Assembly: GCA_963708135.1 (NCBI GenBank) | Contig: OY970192.1 | Span: forward strand, 4,896,001-4,960,000 | Direction: 5' to 3' | DNA: 64,000 nucleotides | Source of the DNA: an uncultured Gemmatimonadales bacterium | GTDB lineage: Bacteria > Gemmatimonadota > Gemmatimonadetes > Longimicrobiales > RSA9 | Shown: piece after piece, positions 12,238-21,029 of the stretch | Layout of the letters: every line of letters starts with the position of its first letter | Numbering within the stretch: the stretch's first letter is position 1 | Position numbers and translations under genes: made by a program | Notes under the pieces: generated by a model | Databases searched by the model: none | What the model was told of the DNA's origin: nothing | The model's input: the letters and a program-made list of their open reading frames with translations, nothing else

Positions 12238-12299
12238 GACGGCTCACCGGTTTGCGGAGGAGGGCCGGACGGGTCGCCCCCGTCCGGCCCAACGTGGCG

Positions 12300-12917
12300 C
12301 TAGCGCCGCGGCGAAAGCAAGATCGTCGTCACGTTCTCGCTCCAGTACGCCGGGTTGTTCGGATCCTGCGCATCGGCCGTGAGCTGGTACGTCTCGCTGA
12401 GGTGCAGCGGCGTGCCATCGACGCCCTCGATCCAACCGCCCCAGTGTGCCGCGAAGCTCGCGTTCGAGAACGTCTGCGTCTGCTGCACCGTTCCCTCCGC
12501 GATCCTGGTCGGCCCCAGCAGGAACGCGCACGTGAGGTCGTCCAGGGAGCTGGCGTGGTAGACGGCGACGCGCGCGTCGTCGTCCTGGATCCGGACCAGC
12601 CGCTGCGCGATCGCGGACCGCGTCGTGATGGCCGTGCGGGCGCCCACGTTGTAGTCCCCCGTGAGGCAGAGGTCCGAGGGCGCGTGCACGCTCAGAAGCT
12701 GCCGCGCGGCGTCGAAGTTGAAGAAGATCGTCTGCGTCGAGTCGATCACGATCATCGCGCCCTGGGACTGCGGCGGCGTGACGACGTCGCCTCGCGGCGA
12801 CGACGCCGCGGCCGGCGTCAGCGGCCCTTCCCGCTCACACGCGCCCAGCGCACCCAGCACCGCCAGCGCCCCCAGCACGCCGAGCGCCGTTGCCGGCCAT
12901 CCGGCTCCGCATCGCAT
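12300..12917 (-). CDS. Hypothetical lipoprotein
   Basis: GGAGG RBS, hydrophobic signal ending in LGAC, then a non-repetitive, protein-like sequence. Confidence 0.7.
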   Translation of the reverse strand: MRCGAGWPATALGVLGALAVLGALGACEREGPLTPAAASSPRGDVVTPPQSQGAMIVIDSTQTIFFNFDAARQLLSVHAPSDLCLTGDYNVGARTAITTRSAIAQRLVRIQDDDARVAVYHASSLDDLTCAFLLGPTRIAEGTVQQTQTFSNASFAAHWGGWIEGVDGTPLHLSETYQLTADAQDPNNPAYWSENVTTILLSPRR

Positions 12918-13218
12918 GGCACCCTCCTCCACTCTCGTTCCCGGCCGCGGGCGAGTCCCGCCGGCCACGGCCTCCAGCATGCCGCCGAGCAGCCGTGGAT
13001 CGAGCGGCGGCGACGCGAGCCGCAGCCGCGCGGGATGAGCCGCGGCCGTGAGGGCCGAGACGGCGCGAGCAGGGGCCGCCTCGGGCCGCCAGCGGAGCGG
13101 GTCGGCTCCCTGTCGCGGGCTGGCGGGGCAGGGCCTCCAGCACTCGGTGGTGGGACCTCGAGGGGCAGCTCCGGCAGCGTCGTGCAGCTTCGCGTCGGCC
13201 TCCACGCGGACCGGGACG

Positions 13219-13494
13219 GAGGGAGTCGGCGCATCCCGCCATGGACGCGCCCCATCCAGCGAGCGATCGTCGGACCAGGAGGGAGAGAGGGTCGGCGCAT
13301 CCCGCCATGGACGCGCCCCATCCAGCGAGCGATCGTCGGACCAGGAGGGAGAGAGGGTCGGCGCATCCCGCCATGGACGCGCTCCGTCCAGCGAGCGATC
13401 GTCGGACCAGGAGGCAGAGGGAGTCGGCGCATCCCGCCATGGACGCGCCCCCATCCAGCGAGCGATCGTCGGACCAGGAGGCAGAGGGAGTCGG
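13219..13494. repeat. Four tandem copies of a 66-bp unit
   Basis: GTCGG anchor at 13225, 13291, 13357, 13423 and 13490; copies nearly identical. Confidence 0.92.
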
Positions 13495-13560
13495 AACCCC
13501 CCGCCGCGGAAGCGACCCCCGGGACCGATCGTGGGAGCCCCCGGCGGCGGGGGAGCGGGC

Positions 13561-13740
13561 CGCCGCAACCCGCCACTCGGGGCCGATCGGCAAACGAGTG
13601 GCGGCTTTGGACGCCCGCACGAGCTTGCGTCGCCGCTCGATCTCCGGTGCCGCGACGAGTGGCGGGTGCCGCAAGCCAGGCGTGCAGAACCCGGCCGCCG
13701 CTCGCGCCAGTGCGGCGAGTGGCGAGTTGTGATCCCGGCG
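13561..13740 (+). repeat. Palindromic ~170-bp unit (diverged copy of the core of the 229-bp repeat)
   Basis: About 138/180 ungapped identities to 14863-15042 by manual count; CGAGTG motifs at 13595, 13656 and 13716. Confidence 0.85.
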
Positions 13741-13845
13741 GCGGTGGACCGCGCGCCATGGGTGGACCACGCGCCGCGGTGCCCTGGGTTGCCACGTCGA
13801 GCCTTGCGCGCCACGCCCCCGGAGCTGGAGAGCGAATCGTGCACG

Positions 13846-14772
13846 ATGCGCCGTGAAGTCGAAGTCAGGATCGCCGCGGTGGCCGCGGGCCAGCACGGCG
13901 TGGTTACGCGCGGGCAGCTGCTCGAGGCGGGGCTGTCACGCGCGGGGATCGCGCACCGCCTGGACGCGGGGTCGATCCGGCGGCTGCATCGCGGCGTGTT
14001 CCTGGTGGGGCCGCTGCTCGCCCCGCACACGGCGGAGATGGCCGCGGTGCTGGCGAGCGGCGGCCACGGGCTGGTCAGCCACACGAGCGCAGCGTCGCTC
14101 TGGGCACTTGGTGCCGCGCGCGCGGCGGGTGAGCCGGTTGAGATCGTGCGAGCCGGCACGAGCCGCGCGTGCCACCCCGGCATCCGGGTGCATCGCACCG
14201 CGGGGCTGGAGGCGGAGGACCGCGCGGTGGTCAACGCGATCCCGGTCACCGCGCCCGTGCGGACCCTGGTGGACCTGGCGGGGGTGGTCGGCAGCGGGGA
14301 GCTGGAGCGGGCCGTGGCGCGCGCGGAGCGGGAGGGCCTCGTCACCCGCGAGGCGCTGCTGGCGCGGGTGGCGCGGAGCGGAGGCCGGCGCGGCATCGTC
14401 GCACTTCGTCGCCTGCTCGGCATACCCGGCGGACCGGCGCTCACGCGCTCGGAGGCGGAGGCGGCCTTCCTCGCCCTGGTCCGTGAGGCAGGGCTTCCGG
14501 CGCCGGAGGCGAACGCCCCATTCGGCCGATACGAGCTCGACTTCCTGTGGCGCGCCGAAGGAGTCGCGGTGGAGGTGGACGGGTTCCGGAGCCATTCGAC
14601 ACGGCCGCGCTTCGAGGGCGACCGGCGCAAGGACGCGCGGCTGCTGGCCGCCGGAATCAAGGTCCTGCGCGTCACGTGGCGGCAGATCGCCGACGACGCG
14701 GTGGCCACCGCGGTCCAGGTCGGCCAGGCCCTCGCCCGGGCCGGGGCCGAGCGGGGCGGACGGACCAGGTAG
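13846..14772 (+). CDS. AbiEi-like N-terminal domain plus C-terminal DUF559/Vsr-like endonuclease
   Basis: QHGVVTRGQL, RLHRGVF, SHTSAA, IPVTAPVRTLVDLA, RSEAE, ELDFLW, VEVDGFRSH, DRRKD, VLRVTW. Confidence 0.88.
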   Translation: MRREVEVRIAAVAAGQHGVVTRGQLLEAGLSRAGIAHRLDAGSIRRLHRGVFLVGPLLAPHTAEMAAVLASGGHGLVSHTSAASLWALGAARAAGEPVEIVRAGTSRACHPGIRVHRTAGLEAEDRAVVNAIPVTAPVRTLVDLAGVVGSGELERAVARAEREGLVTREALLARVARSGGRRGIVALRRLLGIPGGPALTRSEAEAAFLALVREAGLPAPEANAPFGRYELDFLWRAEGVAVEVDGFRSHSTRPRFEGDRRKDARLLAAGIKVLRVTWRQIADDAVATAVQVGQALARAGAERGGRTR

Positions 14773-14836
14773 GCGACGCCGGGTCCTCCGTCCTGCCTCC
14801 CGCGACCACGGCAGCGCCGCGCCCCGCGACGGAGGG

Positions 14837-15522
14837 GACCAGCCGGCGTCGGCGGACGCAGTCGGCACAACTCACCACTCGAGACGGATCGGGAAGCGAG
14901 TGATGGGTTCGGACGCCTCCACGAGCCCGAGCCGCCCGTCGATTTCCGGTGTCCGGACGAGTGGCAGCTTGTGCCGGCCAAGCGTGCAGAAACCCGCCGC
15001 CGCATGCGCCAGTGCGACGAGTGGCGCGTTGTGCACCCGGCACACGCGCGCCGCGGGTGGCCCGAGACCAGCCGGCGTCGGCGGACGCAGTCGGCACAAC
15101 TCACCACTCGAGACGGATCGGGAAGCGAGTGATGGGTTCGGACGCCTCCACGAGCCCGAGCCGCCCGTCGATTTCCGGTGTCCGGACGAGTGGCAGCTTG
15201 TGCCGGCCAAGCGTGCAGAAACCCGCCGCCGCATTTGCCGGTGCGACGAGTGGCGAGTTGTGCACCCGGCACACGCGCGCCGCGGGTGGCCCGAGACCAG
15301 CCGGCGTCGGCGGACGCAGTCGGCACAACTCACCACTCGAGACGGATCGGGAAGCGAGTGATGGGTTCGGACGCCTCCACGAGCCCGAGCCGCCCGTCGA
15401 TTTCCGGTGTCCGGACGAGTGGCAGCTTGTGCCGGCCAAGCGTGCAGAAACCCGCCGCCGCATTTGCCGGTGCGACGAGTGGCGAGTTGTGCACCCGGCA
15501 CACGCGCGCCGCGGGTGGCCCG
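14837..15522 (+). repeat. Three near-identical tandem copies of a 229-bp unit, each containing a ~170-bp core with 17-bp inverted ends
   Basis: GACC anchors at 14837, 15066 and 15295; arms GCACAACTCACCACTCG and CGAGTGGCG[A/C]GTTGTGC. Confidence 0.93.
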
Positions 15523-15549
15523 CGCACTGCCCGCAGGCGCGGGTTGGTC

Positions 15550-15690
15550 CGCCGCCTGCACCGGGGCGTGTTCCGCCGCCTGCGCCGCGGCGTGTTCCGC
15601 CGCCTGCGCCGCGGCGTGTTCCGCCGCCTGCACCGGGGCGTGTTCCGCCGCCTGCACCGGGGCGTGTTCCGCCGCCTGCGCCGCGGCGTC
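15550..15690 (+). repeat. Six tandem 24-bp units encoding RRL[H/R]RGVF
   Basis: Unit CGCCGCCTGC[A/G]CCG[G/C]GGCGTGTTC; the same peptide is encoded at 13978-14001 in the AbiEi-like gene. Confidence 0.88.
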
Positions 15691-15699
15691 GGGCGGCCC

Positions 15700-16005
15700 C
15701 TACGGCAGTTTTGCGGCCAGGACCTCCACCTTCCGGATGTCGGGATCCTCGGCGAGCAACTCCGGCGCCTTCTCCATCAGGGCGCCGGCGATGCGCCCCG
15801 CCAGGTGCGCCTCGCGGCCGGCATCGTCGGCGAAGGTGTCGAAGATGCCGAAGGTCGCCTCGTCGAGGCGGAGGGCGAACCAGGTCGTCGTCGCCTGCTC
15901 ATCGCGCGCCAGCGGGAGCGCGCCGCGCAGGAAGGCCCCGAGCTCCTGTTCCTTGCCGCTCCGGGCCTTCAGCAGGGCGAGCAGTGCGAGATTGGCTTCG
16001 GCCAT
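15700..16005 (-). CDS. Antibiotic biosynthesis monooxygenase (ABM) family protein
   Basis: LKARSGKEQEL...TTTWFALRL...FGIFDTFADDAGREAHLAG; GGAGG RBS. Confidence 0.85.
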   Translation of the reverse strand: MAEANLALLALLKARSGKEQELGAFLRGALPLARDEQATTTWFALRLDEATFGIFDTFADDAGREAHLAGRIAGALMEKAPELLAEDPDIRKVEVLAAKLP

Positions 16006-16183
16006 GGTGGGTGCCTCCTCGGATCGAGTTTCCGGAACACGTTGCCGCGGAACGGTTTCCGCGCGGGCGGGCCGGTGGCGCGGAAGGCGACGGCGCCCCG
16101 CGCCTGCCCGTCCGGCCAAGGCTCGCGGCGCCGCGCCGGTTCCCGGCTTCCTCGCTCGCACGGCCGCGGATGCCCCGCGGGGG

Positions 16184-16220
16184 CGCCGCGTGCCCATCTC
16201 CCCTGAACCGGCCGCCCCGG
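16184..16220 (+). repeat. 37-bp exact direct repeat, copy 1
   Basis: CGCCGCGTGCCCATCTCCCCTGAACCGGCCGCCCCGG, identical at 19967-20003. Confidence 0.9.
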
Positions 16221-16385
16221 GCCGCGTCACGACGGCGGCGAAGCCCTGGTCCGGCAGGGCCGGCGGAAGGAGGCAGCCAGCCGACGAGCGCGCCGCCGCG
16301 GCGGTGGCGCGGGTGGCGCCCAGCCACGGGATCGCGGTGGAGCCGTTCCGCCCGCGCCGGCGTCGCGGTATCTTCACCGGAACGT

Positions 16386-16436
16386 GGCGATGGAGTTCGC
16401 CCTGAACCACCGCGACACGCGCGGTTGATGACTCCT
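16386..16436 (+). ncRNA. Fluoride riboswitch (crcB motif)
   Basis: GGCGAUGGAGUUCGCC-CUGAACC-ACCGCG...CGCGGU-UGAUGACUCCU. P1 is GGCGA/UCGCC, the pseudoknot is GGAGU/ACUCC, and the conserved UGAUGAC is present. Putative -10 TATCTT at 16369-16374. Confidence 0.88.
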
Positions 16437-16469
16437 GTTCGGCCAAACGGCCGGGCGGGAGTTCTTCGT
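16431..16469 (+). terminator. Riboswitch expression-platform hairpin (putative intrinsic terminator)
   Basis: 14-bp stem ACUCCUGUUCGGCC/GGCCGGGCGGGAGU with loop AAAC and a short U-rich tail; it uses the pseudoknot strand ACUCC. Confidence 0.7.
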
Positions 16470-16493
16470 GCTCCCCCCGCGGAAAGGAGTGCG

Positions 16494-18242
16494 ATGCCAG
16501 CGGAGCGCGAGGGTCCTCCCTCCGCGGCCGTGTCTGCCGGCCCCACGGCGGCGGACCCGCTCGAGCGCCTCGCCGACCTGGCCGATGCACTGGGCGCCGG
16601 CCGGGCGGCCCGGGAGGCGCGGGCGCTCGCGGAGCGCGTGGCGGAAGGCCGCTTCAACGTCGCCTGCGTGGGGCAGTTCAAGCGGGGCAAGTCCACGCTG
16701 CTGAACGCCCTCGTGGGCCGGTCCGTCCTCCCCACCGGCGTCATCCCGGTGACCGCGACGCCGACGATCCTGCGCTGGGGGCCGAAGCCGGCCGCGCTCG
16801 TGCGCCTTGCGGACGGCGAGACCCGGCGCATCGAGCTCGGTGCGGTGGCGGATTACGTCACGGAGGAGCGTAACCCGGCGAACGCCAGGGGCGTGGACGC
16901 GGTGGAGATGCTGCTGCCCGCGCCCCTCCTTTATGGCGGGCTGTGCCTCGTGGATACGCCCGGGCTGGGCTCGGTCTTCGACGTGGCCACGGGCGCCACC
17001 CACGCCTTCGTGCCGCACATCGACGCGGCGCTGCTCGTGCTCGGCGCGGATCCGCCGATCTCCGCGGACGAGGCCGAGCTCGCCGCCGCCGTGAGCGCGC
17101 AGGTGCCGGATGTGATCGTACTCCTGGCCAAGGCGGACCGGGTCCCCGCCGCCGAGCGCGCGGAGGCGGCCCGCTTCGCGGCGCGCGTGCTGGAGGAGCG
17201 CACCGGCCGCGCGCCGGGGCCGATCCTGGAGGTCAGCTCCACCGAAGCCCTGGCTGGTGAGCGCACGCGCGACTGGGGCCGGTTGGTCGAACGGCTGCAC
17301 GCGCTGTCGGCGCGGTCGGGCCGCGCGCTCGTCCGCGCCGCGCGGGAGCGGGCCGTCCGGCGGCTCGGCGCGCAGCTGCTCTCCCTGGCCGCCGAGGAGC
17401 GGAGCCTGCTGGCCGCCAGCGCGGACGAGCGCGAGCGCCGGCTCGAGGCGCTGCGCCGGTCGGAGGGCGCCCTCGAGGAGCGGCTGCGCTACCTGAGCCG
17501 GATGCTCGCGGAGGAGGAGGAGCGGCTCGCCGACGCGTTCCGCGGGCGGGGGCAGCGGTTCCTGGCGGAGAGCCTCCCGCCCGCCGTCGATGAGCTGGCG
17601 CGCGCGCTGGGGGACGAGCGCACGCGGGGCCCCGCCTTCCGCCGGCGCGCCGCGGAGCTCGCGCGCGACGTGGCCCGACGCCGCATCGAGCCGTGGCTGG
17701 CCCGGGAGGAGGCGGCGGCGGACGAGGCGTACGGCGAGGTGGCCGCGCGTCTCGTGGACAGAGCCAACGGCTTCCTGGATGAGCTCGCCGCGTCTGAGCG
17801 GACGGGACTCCGCGCGCTGCCGCACGCGCTCGGGCCCGAGCCCGCGCTCCGGGGCCGGCGCCGCTTCAGCTTCAACGCCTTCCCCACCCACTTCGTCTCG
17901 CCCGGCCCGCTCCAGTGGCTCTTCGACACGCTCGCCCCGCCGCGCTGGCTGCGCGCGCGCGTCCAACGACAGGCCGCGGAGTTCCTCCAGTGGCTGCTCG
18001 AGGCCAACGCCGTGCGCGTGCGGAGCGATCTCGCCGAGCGCGTGGCCGGGAGCCGGCGCGCCCTCGAGGGAGAGATCCGCGCGATCCTGGAGGACGCGCG
18101 CGCCTGGACGGGGGCGGCGATCGAACGCGCGCAGGCGCTCCACGCCGCCGGCCTCGAGGCGACGCGGCCCGAGCTCGCCCGGCTCGAGACCATCGAGGGC
18201 GCGCTCCGCACCGTCACCGGCGAGGTGGCTCGGCCGTCATAG
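16494..18242 (+). CDS. Bacterial dynamin-like GTPase
   Basis: G1 GQFKRGKS, PTGVIPVT, G3 LVDTPG, G4-like AKAD, long helical C-terminus; AAGGAG RBS. Confidence 0.88.
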   Translation: MPAEREGPPSAAVSAGPTAADPLERLADLADALGAGRAAREARALAERVAEGRFNVACVGQFKRGKSTLLNALVGRSVLPTGVIPVTATPTILRWGPKPAALVRLADGETRRIELGAVADYVTEERNPANARGVDAVEMLLPAPLLYGGLCLVDTPGLGSVFDVATGATHAFVPHIDAALLVLGADPPISADEAELAAAVSAQVPDVIVLLAKADRVPAAERAEAARFAARVLEERTGRAPGPILEVSSTEALAGERTRDWGRLVERLHALSARSGRALVRAARERAVRRLGAQLLSLAAEERSLLAASADERERRLEALRRSEGALEERLRYLSRMLAEEEERLADAFRGRGQRFLAESLPPAVDELARALGDERTRGPAFRRRAAELARDVARRRIEPWLAREEAAADEAYGEVAARLVDRANGFLDELAASERTGLRALPHALGPEPALRGRRRFSFNAFPTHFVSPGPLQWLFDTLAPPRWLRARVQRQAAEFLQWLLEANAVRVRSDLAERVAGSRRALEGEIRAILEDARAWTGAAIERAQALHAAGLEATRPELARLETIEGALRTVTGEVARPS

Positions 18243-18250
18243 TGGACCAA

Positions 18251-18418
18251 CTAGTGGACCGTATCCGAAGTAGCGATGGCATTCGCCGGCGGATCGGACG
18301 CGACCCGCCGCGTTGCTCGTCGTCGAAATAGCGCTGCTATTCCTTCCTCCTCGCGCCTTGCGCTTCGCGCCCGCTCCGCCGGCTCGGTGCTCACCGAACT
18401 TCAGATACGGTCCACTAG
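18251..18418. mobile_element. MITE-like element with 21-bp terminal inverted repeats ending in CTAG
   Basis: CTAGTGGACCGTATCCGAAGT ... ACTTCAGATACGGTCCACTAG (1 mismatch); internal hairpin AATAGC-GCT-GCTATT; no transposase. Confidence 0.75.
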
Positions 18419-19794
18419 CCATCGGCCGCGTCGCCGGCGCCGGCGGATCCGCGGCGTGCTCGATCCGAGCCGTCCTCCGCCGTTTCCGGCCCGGCCGCCG
18501 CCCGCTCCGCGGCGCGCCTCGCGACGAGCGCCGCCGCGGCACGCTCTTCGAGGTGCGCCAGGCGCCCCGCGAGCCGGTCGCCAGGTGAGCGCGCCCAGGC
18601 CAGCGGCTCGAGGACCTCGGCCCGGAGCGGCTCCAGCGTGGGGTCCAGGCCGGCGGCGGTGGAGACCGGCAGGACCGCCGGCACCGCGCCCCCCAGCGCG
18701 CGGGCGGCCTCCCCGGCGAGGTACGCGAGGGAACGTTCCAGCTCCGCCTCCGAGAGCAGGTCGGCCTTGCTCAGCAGGAGGCGCCACTCCACACCCGCGG
18801 AGGAGAGCCCCGCGAGCAGGGCGAGGTCCTCCTCGTCCAGCGCGCTCCCGGCCGCCACCAGGACGAGGCCGAGGTCGCACCGGGCCAGCCACGCGAAGGG
18901 GAGGGCCGTGGTGGCCGTGACGCGCGAGGCCACGCCCGGCGTGTCCAGGAACCGGATCCGTGCGGGCGCCGTGGGCACCCATATCTCGAGCGACGCCACG
19001 CCGAGCCGGTTGCCGGGGTTCTCCTCTTCGGCCGCGAAACCCGCCACGGCCTCCAGCGGGTGCCGCTCGGTGCGCCCGCCCGCGAACCGCACCAGCACCC
19101 CGGCCTCGCCCTGCTCGACGCGGAGCGGCAGGGCCGTGACCGGGGTGGCGCCCACCGGCAGGGCCGGGGCGCCCACGAGGGCATTGATGAGGGAGGACTT
19201 CCCGGAGCTCGTCCGGCCGAAGATGCCTACGTCGACCATGGACGAGGTGGCCCGCTCCGCCAGCGCCGCGATCTCGGGGTAGAGCTCGACCAGCTCGTGA
19301 TCGCGCGCCAGGCTGAGAACCGCGCGCAATGTCTCCGCCGTGGGCTCCGGCACCGCCTCGAGACGGGTCTCCAGGTCGCCGTATCCGCTGCCCCGGAGCA
19401 GCTCGCGCGCCGGGGCGAGCCGGGCGCGGAGCTCCGCCGCCACGCGCTTCACCGACTCGGCCGAGGCGGCATCCAGCGCGCCGTAGCGGCGGAGCGTCGC
19501 CGGCTGGAGCTCCGAGAGCGCGATGTCGATGAACGTCAGCGCGGTGAGCGCGCTCCAGCGGGCGGAGATGGCCGGCTCGGGGAGCGGGATGTCGAGCCGG
19601 CCGAGCGCCTCCAGCAGCGCCGCCCTGAGCTCCGCCACGAAGGCAAGGAGCATCCGCGACTCGTACGCCGAGAGGTCCGCCCGCTCCTTCGAGAAGGCGG
19701 AAAGGTCCTCCCGCGCCAGCCGCGCAATGCCGTCGACGAGCTCGCTCGTGTGCGCGAACGTCGAGGTGACGAAGCGGTTCTGCAATGGATTCAT
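18415..19794 (-). CDS. Second dynamin-like GTPase, possibly truncated at the C-terminus
   Basis: G1 GRTSSGKS, PVGATPVT, FLDTPG, LSKAD. The stop codon lies inside the MITE end and the tail is low-complexity. Confidence 0.8.
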   Translation of the reverse strand: MNPLQNRFVTSTFAHTSELVDGIARLAREDLSAFSKERADLSAYESRMLLAFVAELRAALLEALGRLDIPLPEPAISARWSALTALTFIDIALSELQPATLRRYGALDAASAESVKRVAAELRARLAPARELLRGSGYGDLETRLEAVPEPTAETLRAVLSLARDHELVELYPEIAALAERATSSMVDVGIFGRTSSGKSSLINALVGAPALPVGATPVTALPLRVEQGEAGVLVRFAGGRTERHPLEAVAGFAAEEENPGNRLGVASLEIWVPTAPARIRFLDTPGVASRVTATTALPFAWLARCDLGLVLVAAGSALDEEDLALLAGLSSAGVEWRLLLSKADLLSEAELERSLAYLAGEAARALGGAVPAVLPVSTAAGLDPTLEPLRAEVLEPLAWARSPGDRLAGRLAHLEERAAAALVARRAAERAAAGPETAEDGSDRARRGSAGAGDAADG

Positions 19795-19966
19795 GGGCTG
19801 CCCCCGCGCGCATGATCGTCCCGGCCGCGACGCGAGGCAAGGAGCCGGGATGCGCGCCGCGTCGCCGCCCGCGCGGCCCGGGTGGGCGCGCCCGCGCCGC
19901 TCGCGGGCCCCGCTCGCCTCCCTTGACTCGGTGCCGGCCCGCGGGTAGCGTCGGATCGCGCCGCCA

Positions 19967-20003
19967 CGCCGCGTGCCCATCTCCCCTGAACCGGCCGCCC
20001 CGG
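19967..20003 (+). repeat. 37-bp exact direct repeat, copy 2 (just downstream of promoter TTGACT-17-TAGCGT at 19923-19951)
   Basis: Identical to 16184-16220. Confidence 0.9.
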
Positions 20004-20017
20004 CCGCCGGAGCGATC

Positions 20018-20332
20018 ATGGACCCACGGCAGTTCGTCCTGACCCTGATCATCCTGGGCATCCCCGCGGTCTCGCTCAGCACCTGGCTGCTGAGCAGGCC
20101 GTTCCTCAACGCCTTCCTCCGCAGCCGCGAGCTGAAGGCGGGCGTGCGGATGGATCCCGCGCGTCTGGACGCGCAGGACCAGCGCATCGCGGAGCTCGAG
20201 GGCGAGGTCGCGGCCATGCGGCACGAGATGGAGCGGCTGTCCAGCGTGGAGAGCTTCTACGCCCAGCTCGGCGCCGGAAACCCGAAAGGCGTTCCACCCC
20301 CGGGCGCAAAGCCCGCCGGCCCCGGCGTCTGA
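20018..20332 (+). CDS. Small single-TM coiled-coil protein
   Basis: N-terminal TM helix, then RIAELEGEVAAMRHEMERL; GGAG RBS. Confidence 0.7.
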   Translation: MDPRQFVLTLIILGIPAVSLSTWLLSRPFLNAFLRSRELKAGVRMDPARLDAQDQRIAELEGEVAAMRHEMERLSSVESFYAQLGAGNPKGVPPPGAKPAGPGV

Positions 20333-20391: not shown

Positions 20392-20427
20392 TTGACACAA
20401 CTGTGCCATAAATATACCTATGTGTCA
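20392..20427 (+). promoter_or_regulatory. Promoter/operator of the TetR gene
   Basis: TTGACA overlaps the palindrome TGACACA-AC-TGTGCCA; a second half-site TGTGTCA abuts the ATG. Confidence 0.6.
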
Positions 20428-21029
20428 TGACGGCCGACTCGCTGCGTACCCGACAGGCCGCGGTCGCGCGCACCGCGATCATGGAGGCGCTCGTCCGGCA
20501 CCTCGAGGATGGCGCTGCCGACGGGCTCTCCATGGAGGAGCTGGCGCGCGAGGCGGGGGTCTCGCGGCGGACGCTGTACCGCTACTTCCCGGGCCGGGCG
20601 GAGCTGCTGGCGGCGGCGGGGGAGTGGATCCGGGGGGACGTGCTGGGGCTGCCGATAGAGATCGGAGCGGAGGGGATCGCGGCGAGCTTCCGCGCGGCCG
20701 CCGCGCGGCTCCAGGAGAAGCCGCGGCTCGCGCGGGCGTTGCTCCGGACGGAGACGGGGCGCGCGGTGCGGAGCGGCTACCGGCGGGACCGTGTGGAGGC
20801 GATCCGGCGCGCGGTCCGGGGGGAGGCGCCCGGCGCGCCGGAGGACGAAGTGGCGCGGGCGGCGGCCGTGCTGGCCTGCCTGTGCAGCTCGAGCGCGTGG
20901 ACGACGATCCAGGACGAGTCGGGTCTCGATGCGGCGAGCGCGCAGGCGGCGGTGGAGTGGGCGATCGAGAGCCTCCTGGCGCGGCTGCGCGGGGAGGGTG
21001 GAGCGACTCCGGATGGAGGTGGGCAATGA
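20427..21029 (+). CDS. TetR/AcrR family regulator
   Basis: LSMEELAREAGVSRRTLYRYFPGRAELL. Confidence 0.9.
   Translation: MTADSLRTRQAAVARTAIMEALVRHLEDGAADGLSMEELAREAGVSRRTLYRYFPGRAELLAAAGEWIRGDVLGLPIEIGAEGIAASFRAAAARLQEKPRLARALLRTETGRAVRSGYRRDRVEAIRRAVRGEAPGAPEDEVARAAAVLACLCSSSAWTTIQDESGLDAASAQAAVEWAIESLLARLRGEGGATPDGGGQ

Follow-up and report, generated by a model that had tools for sequence, protein, structure and literature searches.

A fluoride riboswitch precedes a dynamin-like GTPase gene in a Gemmatimonadales genome and in related loci of other bacteria

Introduction

Export, pH and ion homeostasis, and the replacement of inhibited enzymes are the known bacterial defences against fluoride, and the genes of classical fluoride-riboswitch units are crcB/Fluc, eriC-F/CLC-F, Na+/H+ antiporters, ppa, eno, usp and mutS-like genes. 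Here we describe a fluoride riboswitch that stands before the gene for a dynamin-like GTPase, P0001, in an uncultured Gemmatimonadales bacterium. The stretch of DNA analysed, hereafter the window, covers 64,000 nucleotides (nt; C1:4896001-4960000 of a 5.45-Mb single-contig genome with 72-77% GC), and positions without prefix refer to it. Its aptamer belongs, above the Rfam cut-off, to the same family as those of the classical units, and the same companion genes appear in loci related to the window; unlike in those units, however, the controlled gene encodes a dynamin-like GTPase, and the exporter gene has no switch. Many crcB RNAs are described as having a terminator that overlaps the 3′ portion of the motif, a design that the window unit shares (PMC2864571), the companion genes of the related loci appear as classical fluoride-riboswitch companions (PMC11139923, PMC2864571), and enolase and pyrophosphatase are given as fluoride-sensitive enzymes (PMC11139923).

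Among bacterial dynamin-like proteins (BDLPs), one of the closest described counterparts of P0001 is IniA of Mycobacterium (6j72/6j73), which is the best full-length fold match and of similar size. IniA is induced by isoniazid, a chemical stress; P0001, at 20% identity, differs from it in its presumed inducing signal, in its control by an RNA switch and in carrying the signature DYVTEERNPxN. The paired BDLPs (Campylobacter DLP1/DLP2, 5owv; Bacillus subtilis DynA; Nostoc BDLP1, 2j68) have a GTPase domain with helical neck and trunk, as P0001 does, and relatives of P0001 often have, like these known pairs, two different dynamin genes per operon. In the window, by contrast, the partner gene is convergent, switchless and truncated, and the DynA model scores 41.7 bits on P0001 against a cut-off of 1600. 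The LeoABC-type "dynamins" anti-phage system (PADLOC) also contains dynamin-like GTPases, and P0001 has a weak LeoA match; the neighbourhoods related to P0001, however, hold fluoride genes and not LeoB/C. To our knowledge, what bacterial dynamin-like proteins do in the living cell is still ill-defined.

The initial annotation of the window knew of no characterised function for the pairing of riboswitch and dynamin, and the literature searched contains none. The words "dynamin" and "GTPase" are absent from the available portions of PMC11139923 (a 2024 review), PMC7266159, PMC5473149 and the text and eight supplements of PMC2864571; in the accessible part of PMC9971707, "GTPase" occurs in the reference list only, and the gene lists for fluoride riboswitches contain no dynamin. 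Full-text searches, which left the gene table of Baker et al. 2012 outside their reach, returned no paper linking dynamins to fluoride riboswitches, and no title or abstract was found that pairs a bacterial dynamin with a fluoride response, or a GTPase or DUF190 with a fluoride riboswitch.

Results

A complete fluoride aptamer upstream of the GTPase gene

The crcB-type aptamer that the initial annotation had read from the letters (P1, P2, pseudoknot, UGAUGAC) is borne out by covariance-model search: RF01734 (fluoride, crcB motif) aligns over its full length (model positions 1-64 of 64) with 49.9 bits (E = 7.5e-11; cmscan, Rfam 15) against a gathering score of 34 bits, and no other Rfam family comes above threshold anywhere in the 64 kb (Table 1). 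Helix P1 (GGCG/CGCC) and the second helix (ACCGCG/CGCGGU) are seen both in the RF01734 alignment and in the sequence, and both appear in the minimum-free-energy (MFE) fold of 16377-16500; the conserved stretches GAUGGAGU and UGAUGACUCC are likewise present in alignment and sequence. The consensus elements GAUGG and UGAUGAC are found here and are invariant, including the pseudoknot positions, across nine Rfam-confirmed aptamers. The aptamer ends 50 nt 5′ of the dynamin ATG on the same strand, and the ribosome-binding site (RBS) and ATG follow the downstream stem in the order first annotated. Since the nearest upstream gene runs on the opposite strand, the switch sits in a 488-nt divergent intergenic region. 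A consensus scan of 15600-16700 found no sigma-70 promoter; the TATCTT hexamer listed in Table 1 recurs 5′ of the aptamer, at a different spacing, in the leader of the orthologous gene of a second genome of the same family (G012; loci and genomes are cited by our labels L and G where they need to be told apart).

The window copy is also the sole fluoride aptamer recovered by a whole-genome covariance search (150 of 640 first-look candidates scored, then 32 of 626 in a repeat), and a descriptor scan of every base of the genome gave four candidates, with the full consensus in the window copy only. The initial annotation had noted that the window lacks fluc/crcB and eriC, and indeed all CrcB and CLC matches of the genome lie outside it: there is one CrcB gene (C1:4092132-4092470, minus strand) adjoining a DUF190 gene (4091777-4092064, minus strand), 820 kb from the window GTPase, and there are three CLC genes, at 0.15, 0.56 and 1.68 Mb. 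Because the crcB-DUF190 locus has no Rfam match at E values up to 1 and hence no detectable fluoride riboswitch, the exporter and the RNA-sensed gene appear to be regulated separately. The window GTPase is the only gene under the genome's only fluoride riboswitch found.

Table 1. Positions of the riboswitch, the GTPase genes and their surroundings in the window
Feature	Position	Strand	Evidence or remark
Fluoride riboswitch aptamer	16377-16444	+	cmscan; same site recovered by whole-genome search
5′ pseudoknot strand GGAGU	16392-16396	+	sequence; conserved in nine-aptamer alignment; P1 loop
3′ pseudoknot strand ACUCC	16431-16435	+	common to aptamer tail and terminator-like stem
Terminator-like hairpin, 15 bp, loop AAAC, then UUCUUCGU	16430-16463	+	RNAfold -28.5 kcal/mol, z -3.87
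Predicted second hairpin, pairing the GGAG ribosome-binding site	16466-16494	+	part of MFE fold
GGAG ribosome-binding site	16486-16489	+	sequence; ATG at 16494
Dynamin-like GTPase gene, 582 aa (P0001)	16494-18242	+	Dynamin_N 89.9 bits (cut-off 27)
TATCTT hexamer, conceivably a -10 element (weakly inferred)	16369-16374	+	read from sequence
Second dynamin-like GTPase gene, 460 aa, convergent	18415-19797	-	Dynamin_N 59.7 bits
MITE-like element, 168 bp, 21-nt terminal inverted repeats	18251-18418	.	inverted-repeat search
37-nt perfect direct repeat, left copy	16184-16220	+	repeat search
37-nt direct repeat, right copy	19967-20003	+	14 nt before likely ATG at 20018
Gene of 101 aa, no Pfam or NCBIfam family	15700-16005	-	nearest upstream coding signal
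Gene with AbiEi_4 antitoxin-like N-terminus and DUF559/REase-like C-terminus	13825-14772	+

The aptamer recurs beside related dynamin genes

To compare the surroundings of related GTPases, loci were chosen by protein and not by RNA. The first set comprises 13 loci found with P0001 (35-53% identity) from Acidobacteriota, "Deltaproteobacteria", Gemmatimonadales, Thermoanaerobaculia, Chthonomonadales, Myxococcaceae, Vicinamibacterales, Acidimicrobiales, Actinomycetes and Planctomycetales. Rfam finds eight fluoride aptamers in seven of these loci, and in five loci the aptamer is upstream on the same strand: it lies directly 5′ of the dynamin gene in three (L012, L019, L010), is separated from it by an antiporter gene in L011, and is followed in L015 by an antiporter fragment, CrcB and three DUF190 domains before the dynamin. 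In L009 the aptamer lies just 3′ of the dynamin and drives a pyrophosphatase gene, and in L018 a divergent aptamer drives a His_Phos_1 gene. Six loci have no aptamer, including L013 and L014, in which antiporter and Usp genes precede the dynamin; in these two the sequence ends, or the first open reading frame (ORF) is still open, at the 5′ edge.

The second set consists of the best 80 of at least 611 relatives in species genomes, retrieved with a query alignment of 10 orthologues and taken with 4-kb flanks, and was searched with a covariance model built from the nine Rfam-confirmed aptamers (R1). This model gives 76 matches in the 738 kb of the set; 59 of the 80 loci have a match of any score, 55 one of at least 30 bits, and in 47 a match lies upstream on the same strand within 4 kb. 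By our own gene caller, no ORF separates switch and dynamin in 14 of these 47. When 28 of the 80 loci were re-scanned with Rfam, 15 of the 19 with an upstream R1 match passed the gathering score. L033, with only 28 bits on R1, passed too, and four loci without an R1 match stayed negative. It should be noted that R1 is more permissive than Rfam and that its matches below ~42 bits are mostly unconfirmed (L027, L044, L058, L055, L081 and two of three in L092), with two at 43-47 bits failing Rfam as well (L094 and L065). Cases confirmed by Rfam span at least five groups with different titles.

As a baseline, five genomes of the second set, 26 Mb in all, contain 10 aptamers (~0.38 per Mb), from which ~0.3 would be expected in 738 kb. 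In two of these five genomes an aptamer lies ~6 kb upstream of the dynamin gene on the same strand, so that a 4-kb flank undercounts the association. The pairing of aptamer and dynamin is not due to chance, and homologous dynamin genes carry the motif in most of the loci examined; their never carrying it would, by the initial annotation, have counted as a refutation.

A predicted ON switch overlapping the aptamer

The leader is strongly structured: the fold of 16377-16500 has a free energy of -61 kcal/mol (RNAfold; z -3.41), which none of 200 shuffled sequences equalled, and within it the terminator-like hairpin was matched by one of 200 shuffles. Four of the 15 base pairs of this hairpin are G-U pairs, and its 5′ arm holds the ACUCC pseudoknot strand at the base of the stem. 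The terminator-like stem and its use of the 3′ pseudoknot strand thus agree with the initial annotation, which had given its length as 14 bp. A fold constrained to the bound state of the aptamer and both pseudoknot strands shortens the stem from 15 to 8 bp (i.e., seven pairs are lost), leaving a hairpin 6 nt from the U-rich run. The predicted unpaired probability of the RBS is 0.54-0.78 in the free and 0.64-0.98 in the bound fold, and the RBS hairpin persists in the latter.

Orthologous leaders offer a comparison. In the G012 leader (L113), aptamer and terminator stem are nearly identical to those of the window, and a hairpin built from different sequence (~1436-1474) covers GGAGG and the AUG; the RBS hairpins in the two leaders could form a second, translational layer of control. 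Of 16 leaders that immediately precede related GTPase genes, 10 have, by manual reading of the MFE folds, a local hairpin with the pseudoknot strand (CUCC) in its 5′ arm, and clear U-runs follow the stem in five of these 10 (L113, L093, L066, L025 and L074).

The predicted platform has the usual ON-switch design of crcB RNAs, and we infer fluoride binding and read-through by the window switch from its sequence. Following the known mechanism of this riboswitch class, the hairpin would form in the absence of fluoride, and transcription would stop or expression would at least stay low; fluoride and Mg2+ would lock the pseudoknot, the lowest seven base pairs of the stem would open, and RNA polymerase would then read through, allowing the GTPase to be made.

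P0001 belongs to a large and distinct dynamin subfamily

The P0001 ORF has strong third-position GC and the codon-position pattern typical of genuine genes in this genome. Its Dynamin_N match spans residues 56-213, and the protein contains a P-loop (GQFKRGKS), DTPG, AKAD and the signature DYVTEERNPxN; G1 (GQFKRGKS), the G2 threonine (T87) and G3 (DTPG) are invariant across 79 aligned sequences. An AlphaFold2 model based on this 79-sequence alignment (mean predicted local distance difference test score, pLDDT, 87.7; predicted template-modelling score, pTM, 0.76) shows a GTPase domain followed by helices 261-579, which are broken by an unstructured segment at 434-464 and short helices up to residue 480. 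The top Foldseek match of the model is IniA (6j72; E = 3.5e-18 over 604 columns), followed, also at full length, by BDLP1 (2j69), DLP1/DLP2 (5owv) and SynDLP; a sequence search of solved structures agrees, with 5owv_C first and IniA second. On the model, the conserved F460 and P472 and a PLxWL motif at the tip of the trunk are candidate membrane-contact residues.

No curated family claims P0001: all NCBIfam matches, DynA among them, are far below their cut-offs (CrfC, 30.1 bits vs 1146), and the best stretch of the weak PADLOC LeoA match (34.7 bits) covers residues 38-75, mainly the P-loop region. By sequence, P0001 is part of a large, distinct BDLP subfamily recognisable by DYVTEERNPxN, with 1,463 representatives of 50%-identity clusters at E ≤ 1e-30 and 14,501 at E ≤ 0.001.

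Within its own family, full-length orthologues were found in two of 24 other genomes, G012 (60-68% identity) and G014 (44%), the remaining matches being weak and confined to the P-loop. In G012 (L113) an Rfam aptamer of 50.3 bits directly precedes the dynamin, and in G014 (L104) one of 44.7 bits comes first, with DUF190 standing between it and the dynamin. A frameshift located between G3 and G4 interrupts the G012 orthologue (L113/L103), with riboswitch and terminator intact; the split gene is either a pseudogene or an assembly error.

Genes between and beside switch and dynamin in related loci

In the 47 loci with a same-strand upstream match, the interval from the nearest upstream aptamer to the dynamin contains 90 ORFs according to a crude ORF caller; 80 of them share the strand of the dynamin and 10 lie opposite. 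We take the 10 as miscalls, since they have no Pfam family and at least one of them, in L039, sits where sister loci have a same-strand DUF190 gene. By Pfam, the ORFs comprise DUF190 (28), CrcB (13), Na_H_Exchanger (8), AAA_16/ATPase_2 (7), a larger Dynamin_N protein of ~700 aa (4), Usp (2), and one each of enolase, SAICAR synthetase and MFS, with 25 of the 90 lacking a family. The usual acidobacterial operon order is switch, (antiporter, Usp), CrcB, DUF190, DUF190, dynamin.

Downstream of the dynamin, a hand-picked same-strand subset of 76 of 152 called ORFs was scanned. An AAA_16-type ATPase of ~248 aa lies there in 13 loci (L023, L024, L026, L031, L035, L038, L044, L046, L053, L055, L066, L080 and L090), followed in six (L023, L024, L031, L038, L046 and L053) by a 142-143-aa protein without family; other downstream genes are MutS_V pairs, pyrophosphatase, CrcB-DUF190, antiporter-Usp, enolase and HEAT proteins. 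A recurring module in the relatives thus combines a ~700-aa dynamin, a ~250-aa AAA_16/ATPase_2 ATPase, a P0001-type dynamin and sometimes the 142-143-aa protein, and in L055, L070, L075 and L094 members of the module lie upstream of the dynamin; neither an ATPase gene nor a 142-aa gene was seen beside the GTPases of the window. Two other RNAs lie near the dynamin in Acidobacteriota: a group II intron domain (RF02005, 176.7 bits) at 646-863 of L092 and an Acido-Lenti-1 small RNA (RF01687, 45.7 bits) at 139-184 of L066.

Among 151 genomes of the phylum, the fluoride aptamer occurs in 46. By our gene caller, the first downstream ORF at the 30 top-scoring loci encodes CrcB in 12, an antiporter in three, DUF190 in two (one of them L151, in G026, which is flagged unpublished), Dynamin_N in two (L139 and L147) and another family in two, and has no family in nine; in L134 (G145), whose DNA is identical to L084/L011, the dynamin comes second.

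The second GTPase and the flanks of the block

The second GTPase gene, whose start was moved to M141 of its ORF by alignment with relatives, matches the 719-aa protein of L070 (35% identity over 394 aa, E = 2e-55) and lacks ~260 C-terminal residues of this larger partner family. Although it retains a strong coding signal, the gene is probably a truncated copy. A search for the lost C-terminus antisense to P0001 found no similarity. No aptamer lies 5′ of this gene (Rfam, E up to 1), and the mention of "one or both GTPases" in the test proposed by the initial annotation is wrong for the window, the second being convergent, switchless and C-terminally truncated. Dynamin_N occurs in the genome in these two genes and in one weak match of 24.8 bits.

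The 172-nt gap between the two genes is filled by the 168-bp element of Table 1, which folds at -90 kcal/mol and contains the stop codon of the second GTPase gene within its terminal repeat. Since the genome has four full copies that are 99-100% identical, in addition to partial ones, we regard it as a miniature inverted-repeat transposable element (MITE). The 37-nt repeat brackets the two-GTPase block (16221-19966, 3.75 kb) and occurs exactly twice in the whole genome, also with up to six substitutions allowed; no copy is present in the other loci compared, and a search of 40 relatives for an "empty site" matched G002 alone, at the edge of a 1.4-kb contig. The repeat resembles a scar left by DNA that inserted into the leader of the small ORF at 20018. 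The block itself contains no integrase. The patchy distribution of the gene in the family, the unique flanking repeat and the MITE suggest an accessory, acquired unit.

Beyond the right repeat lie a small membrane/coiled-coil ORF (likely ATG at 20018) and a TetR gene (20427-21029). On the other side, 12900-15700 includes ~2.5 kb that is rich in tandem repeats and weak in coding signal, with units of 66 nt (four copies, 13219-13518), 229 nt (three copies, 14809-15534, and a diverged one at 13507) and 12/24 nt (15514-15705); most upstream ORFs in 12252-16405 have no coding signal or Pfam family.

Discussion

We read 16377-18242 as a single-gene fluoride-responsive unit, with a probability of roughly 0.8, and P0001 is, on the sequence evidence, very probably a fluoride-induced member of the fluoride regulon. 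Genes of its subfamily usually stand behind fluoride riboswitches in Acidobacteriota, Gemmatimonadota, Thermoanaerobaculia, "delta-proteobacteria"/Myxococcota, Methylomirabilia, Verrucomicrobiia and Actinomycetes, either as the first gene after the switch or as the last of operons that also encode CrcB, DUF190, Na+/H+ antiporter, Usp and enolase, which makes the subfamily a regular member of the regulon; in the literature searched, such membership has so far not been described. As to its job, we tentatively favour membrane maintenance, at not quite even odds. By analogy with IniA, DynA and BDLP1, P0001 would use the tip of its helical trunk to attach to the cytoplasmic membrane and would spend GTP on keeping the membrane intact, or on reshaping it, when fluoride or hydrogen fluoride (HF) stress damages it; membrane remodelling in response to fluoride is thus a proposal drawn from homology and fold.

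Several observations weigh against this reading. At the level of the pairing, 21 of the 80 loci of the second set have no R1 match within 4 kb, four of the 19 re-scanned loci with an upstream match fall below the Rfam cut-off (L055, L092, L094 and L065), and most of the 80 are from related Acidobacteriota and therefore not independent. With a dynamin as first ORF at two of the 30 top-scoring riboswitch loci of the phylum, against 12 for CrcB, the GTPase is a minority member of the regulon. At the level of the protein, G4 (residue 212) reads AKAD where at least 90% of the 79 family members have NKAD, with the lysine and aspartate kept (TKAD in the G012 and NKAD in the G014 orthologue), and P0001 has no transmembrane segment (maximum Kyte-Doolittle 19-residue mean 1.61, within the GTPase domain), which leaves it to the fold to argue for membrane binding. 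At the level of the switch, the U-tract after the stem is poor (UUCUUCGU only), and a consensus scan of 15600-16700, which needs five T in eight, finds no terminator site, so that folding, with no consensus match behind it, is what speaks for a terminator; moreover, the residual 8-bp stem and the RBS hairpin both persist in the bound fold, making the exact switching step uncertain.

These last points bear on a different mechanism that is compatible with a fluoride-responsive unit, namely a switch acting mainly on translation, with the RBS masked by the hairpin at 16466-16494 and the "terminator" providing only an alternative pairing partner. The poor U-tract and the empty scan would fit it, as would the prediction of RBS-covering hairpins both here and, from different sequence, in the G012 leader. 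We consider it unlikely, given that the RBS hairpin stays in the bound fold, that the accessibility of the RBS barely changes, and that clear U-runs follow the stem in the five orthologous leaders named above.

The role of the protein can be explained in other ways than membrane maintenance. One is compensation for an inhibited enzyme: the cell would make more of a fluoride-sensitive dynamin, as it does with enolase and pyrophosphatase, whose genes occur in the same riboswitch-controlled clusters as the GTPase. It is established biochemistry, and counts in favour, that AlF4-, MgF3- and BeF3- capture GDP-bound GTPases in a form resembling the transition state. Yet an ON switch would keep the protein scarce in the absence of fluoride, a poor fit to a housekeeping enzyme, and EF-Tu, FtsZ or other essential GTPases were not encountered in the operons. 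Nor does the genome contain another copy of the subfamily (its third Dynamin_N match being the weak one noted above), and since there is nothing to back up, the proposal in the initial annotation that P0001 is a back-up for a fluoride-inhibited GTPase lacks support. We judge compensation rather improbable.

Another role would be that of a helper of the export apparatus. The dynamin would partner CrcB/Fluc and the PII-like DUF190 proteins; it might, for instance, arrange the membrane that surrounds the channels, or release vesicles or membrane laden with mineral. The usual acidobacterial operon order suggests such a role, as does the G014 order of switch, DUF190 and dynamin. It seems to us improbable: the crcB-DUF190 locus of the window genome is 820 kb away and switchless, the switch directly precedes the dynamin in the 14 loci without an intervening ORF, and co-regulation is no proof of physical cooperation.

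It is also conceivable, and in our estimate very improbable, that fluoride is not only the inducer but also a working ligand of the subfamily. Fluoride, GDP and Mg2+ (or trace Al3+) would then lock the GTPase domains in a transition-state dimer, and membrane assembly or tethering would occur only with fluoride inside the cell. Such a membrane machine, gated by fluoride, might seal membrane that HF has damaged or release vesicles loaded with fluoride, and it would act in concert with the larger dynamin and the small AAA_16 ATPase that relatives have beside it.

Least probable of all is an incidental linkage, that is, a stress or anti-phage module (LeoABC-like) riding mobile fluoride islands: the weak LeoA match, the genome-unique 37-nt repeat around a block that holds a MITE, the presence of the gene in two of 24 family genomes and the AbiEi/DUF559 gene 1.7 kb upstream would fit it, but in many phyla and unrelated settings the gene comes immediately after the switch, its neighbours belong to the fluoride response and not to defence, the LeoA match is mainly to the P-loop, and the NCBIfam matches are far below their cut-offs.

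The favoured reading, a fluoride-induced GTPase that may maintain membranes, has consequences beyond this genome. Many soil phyla have a large BDLP subfamily, with relatives in no fewer than 611 species genomes, wired to the fluoride riboswitch, and the window shows the cleanest form of the unit: one switch and one gene, with the genome's only fluoride switch found and the exporter regulated elsewhere. For BDLPs, the pairing provides a defined inducing signal and a simple NaF on/off experiment. For the bacterial fluoride response, it suggests that membrane integrity or remodelling may be a further, undescribed branch.

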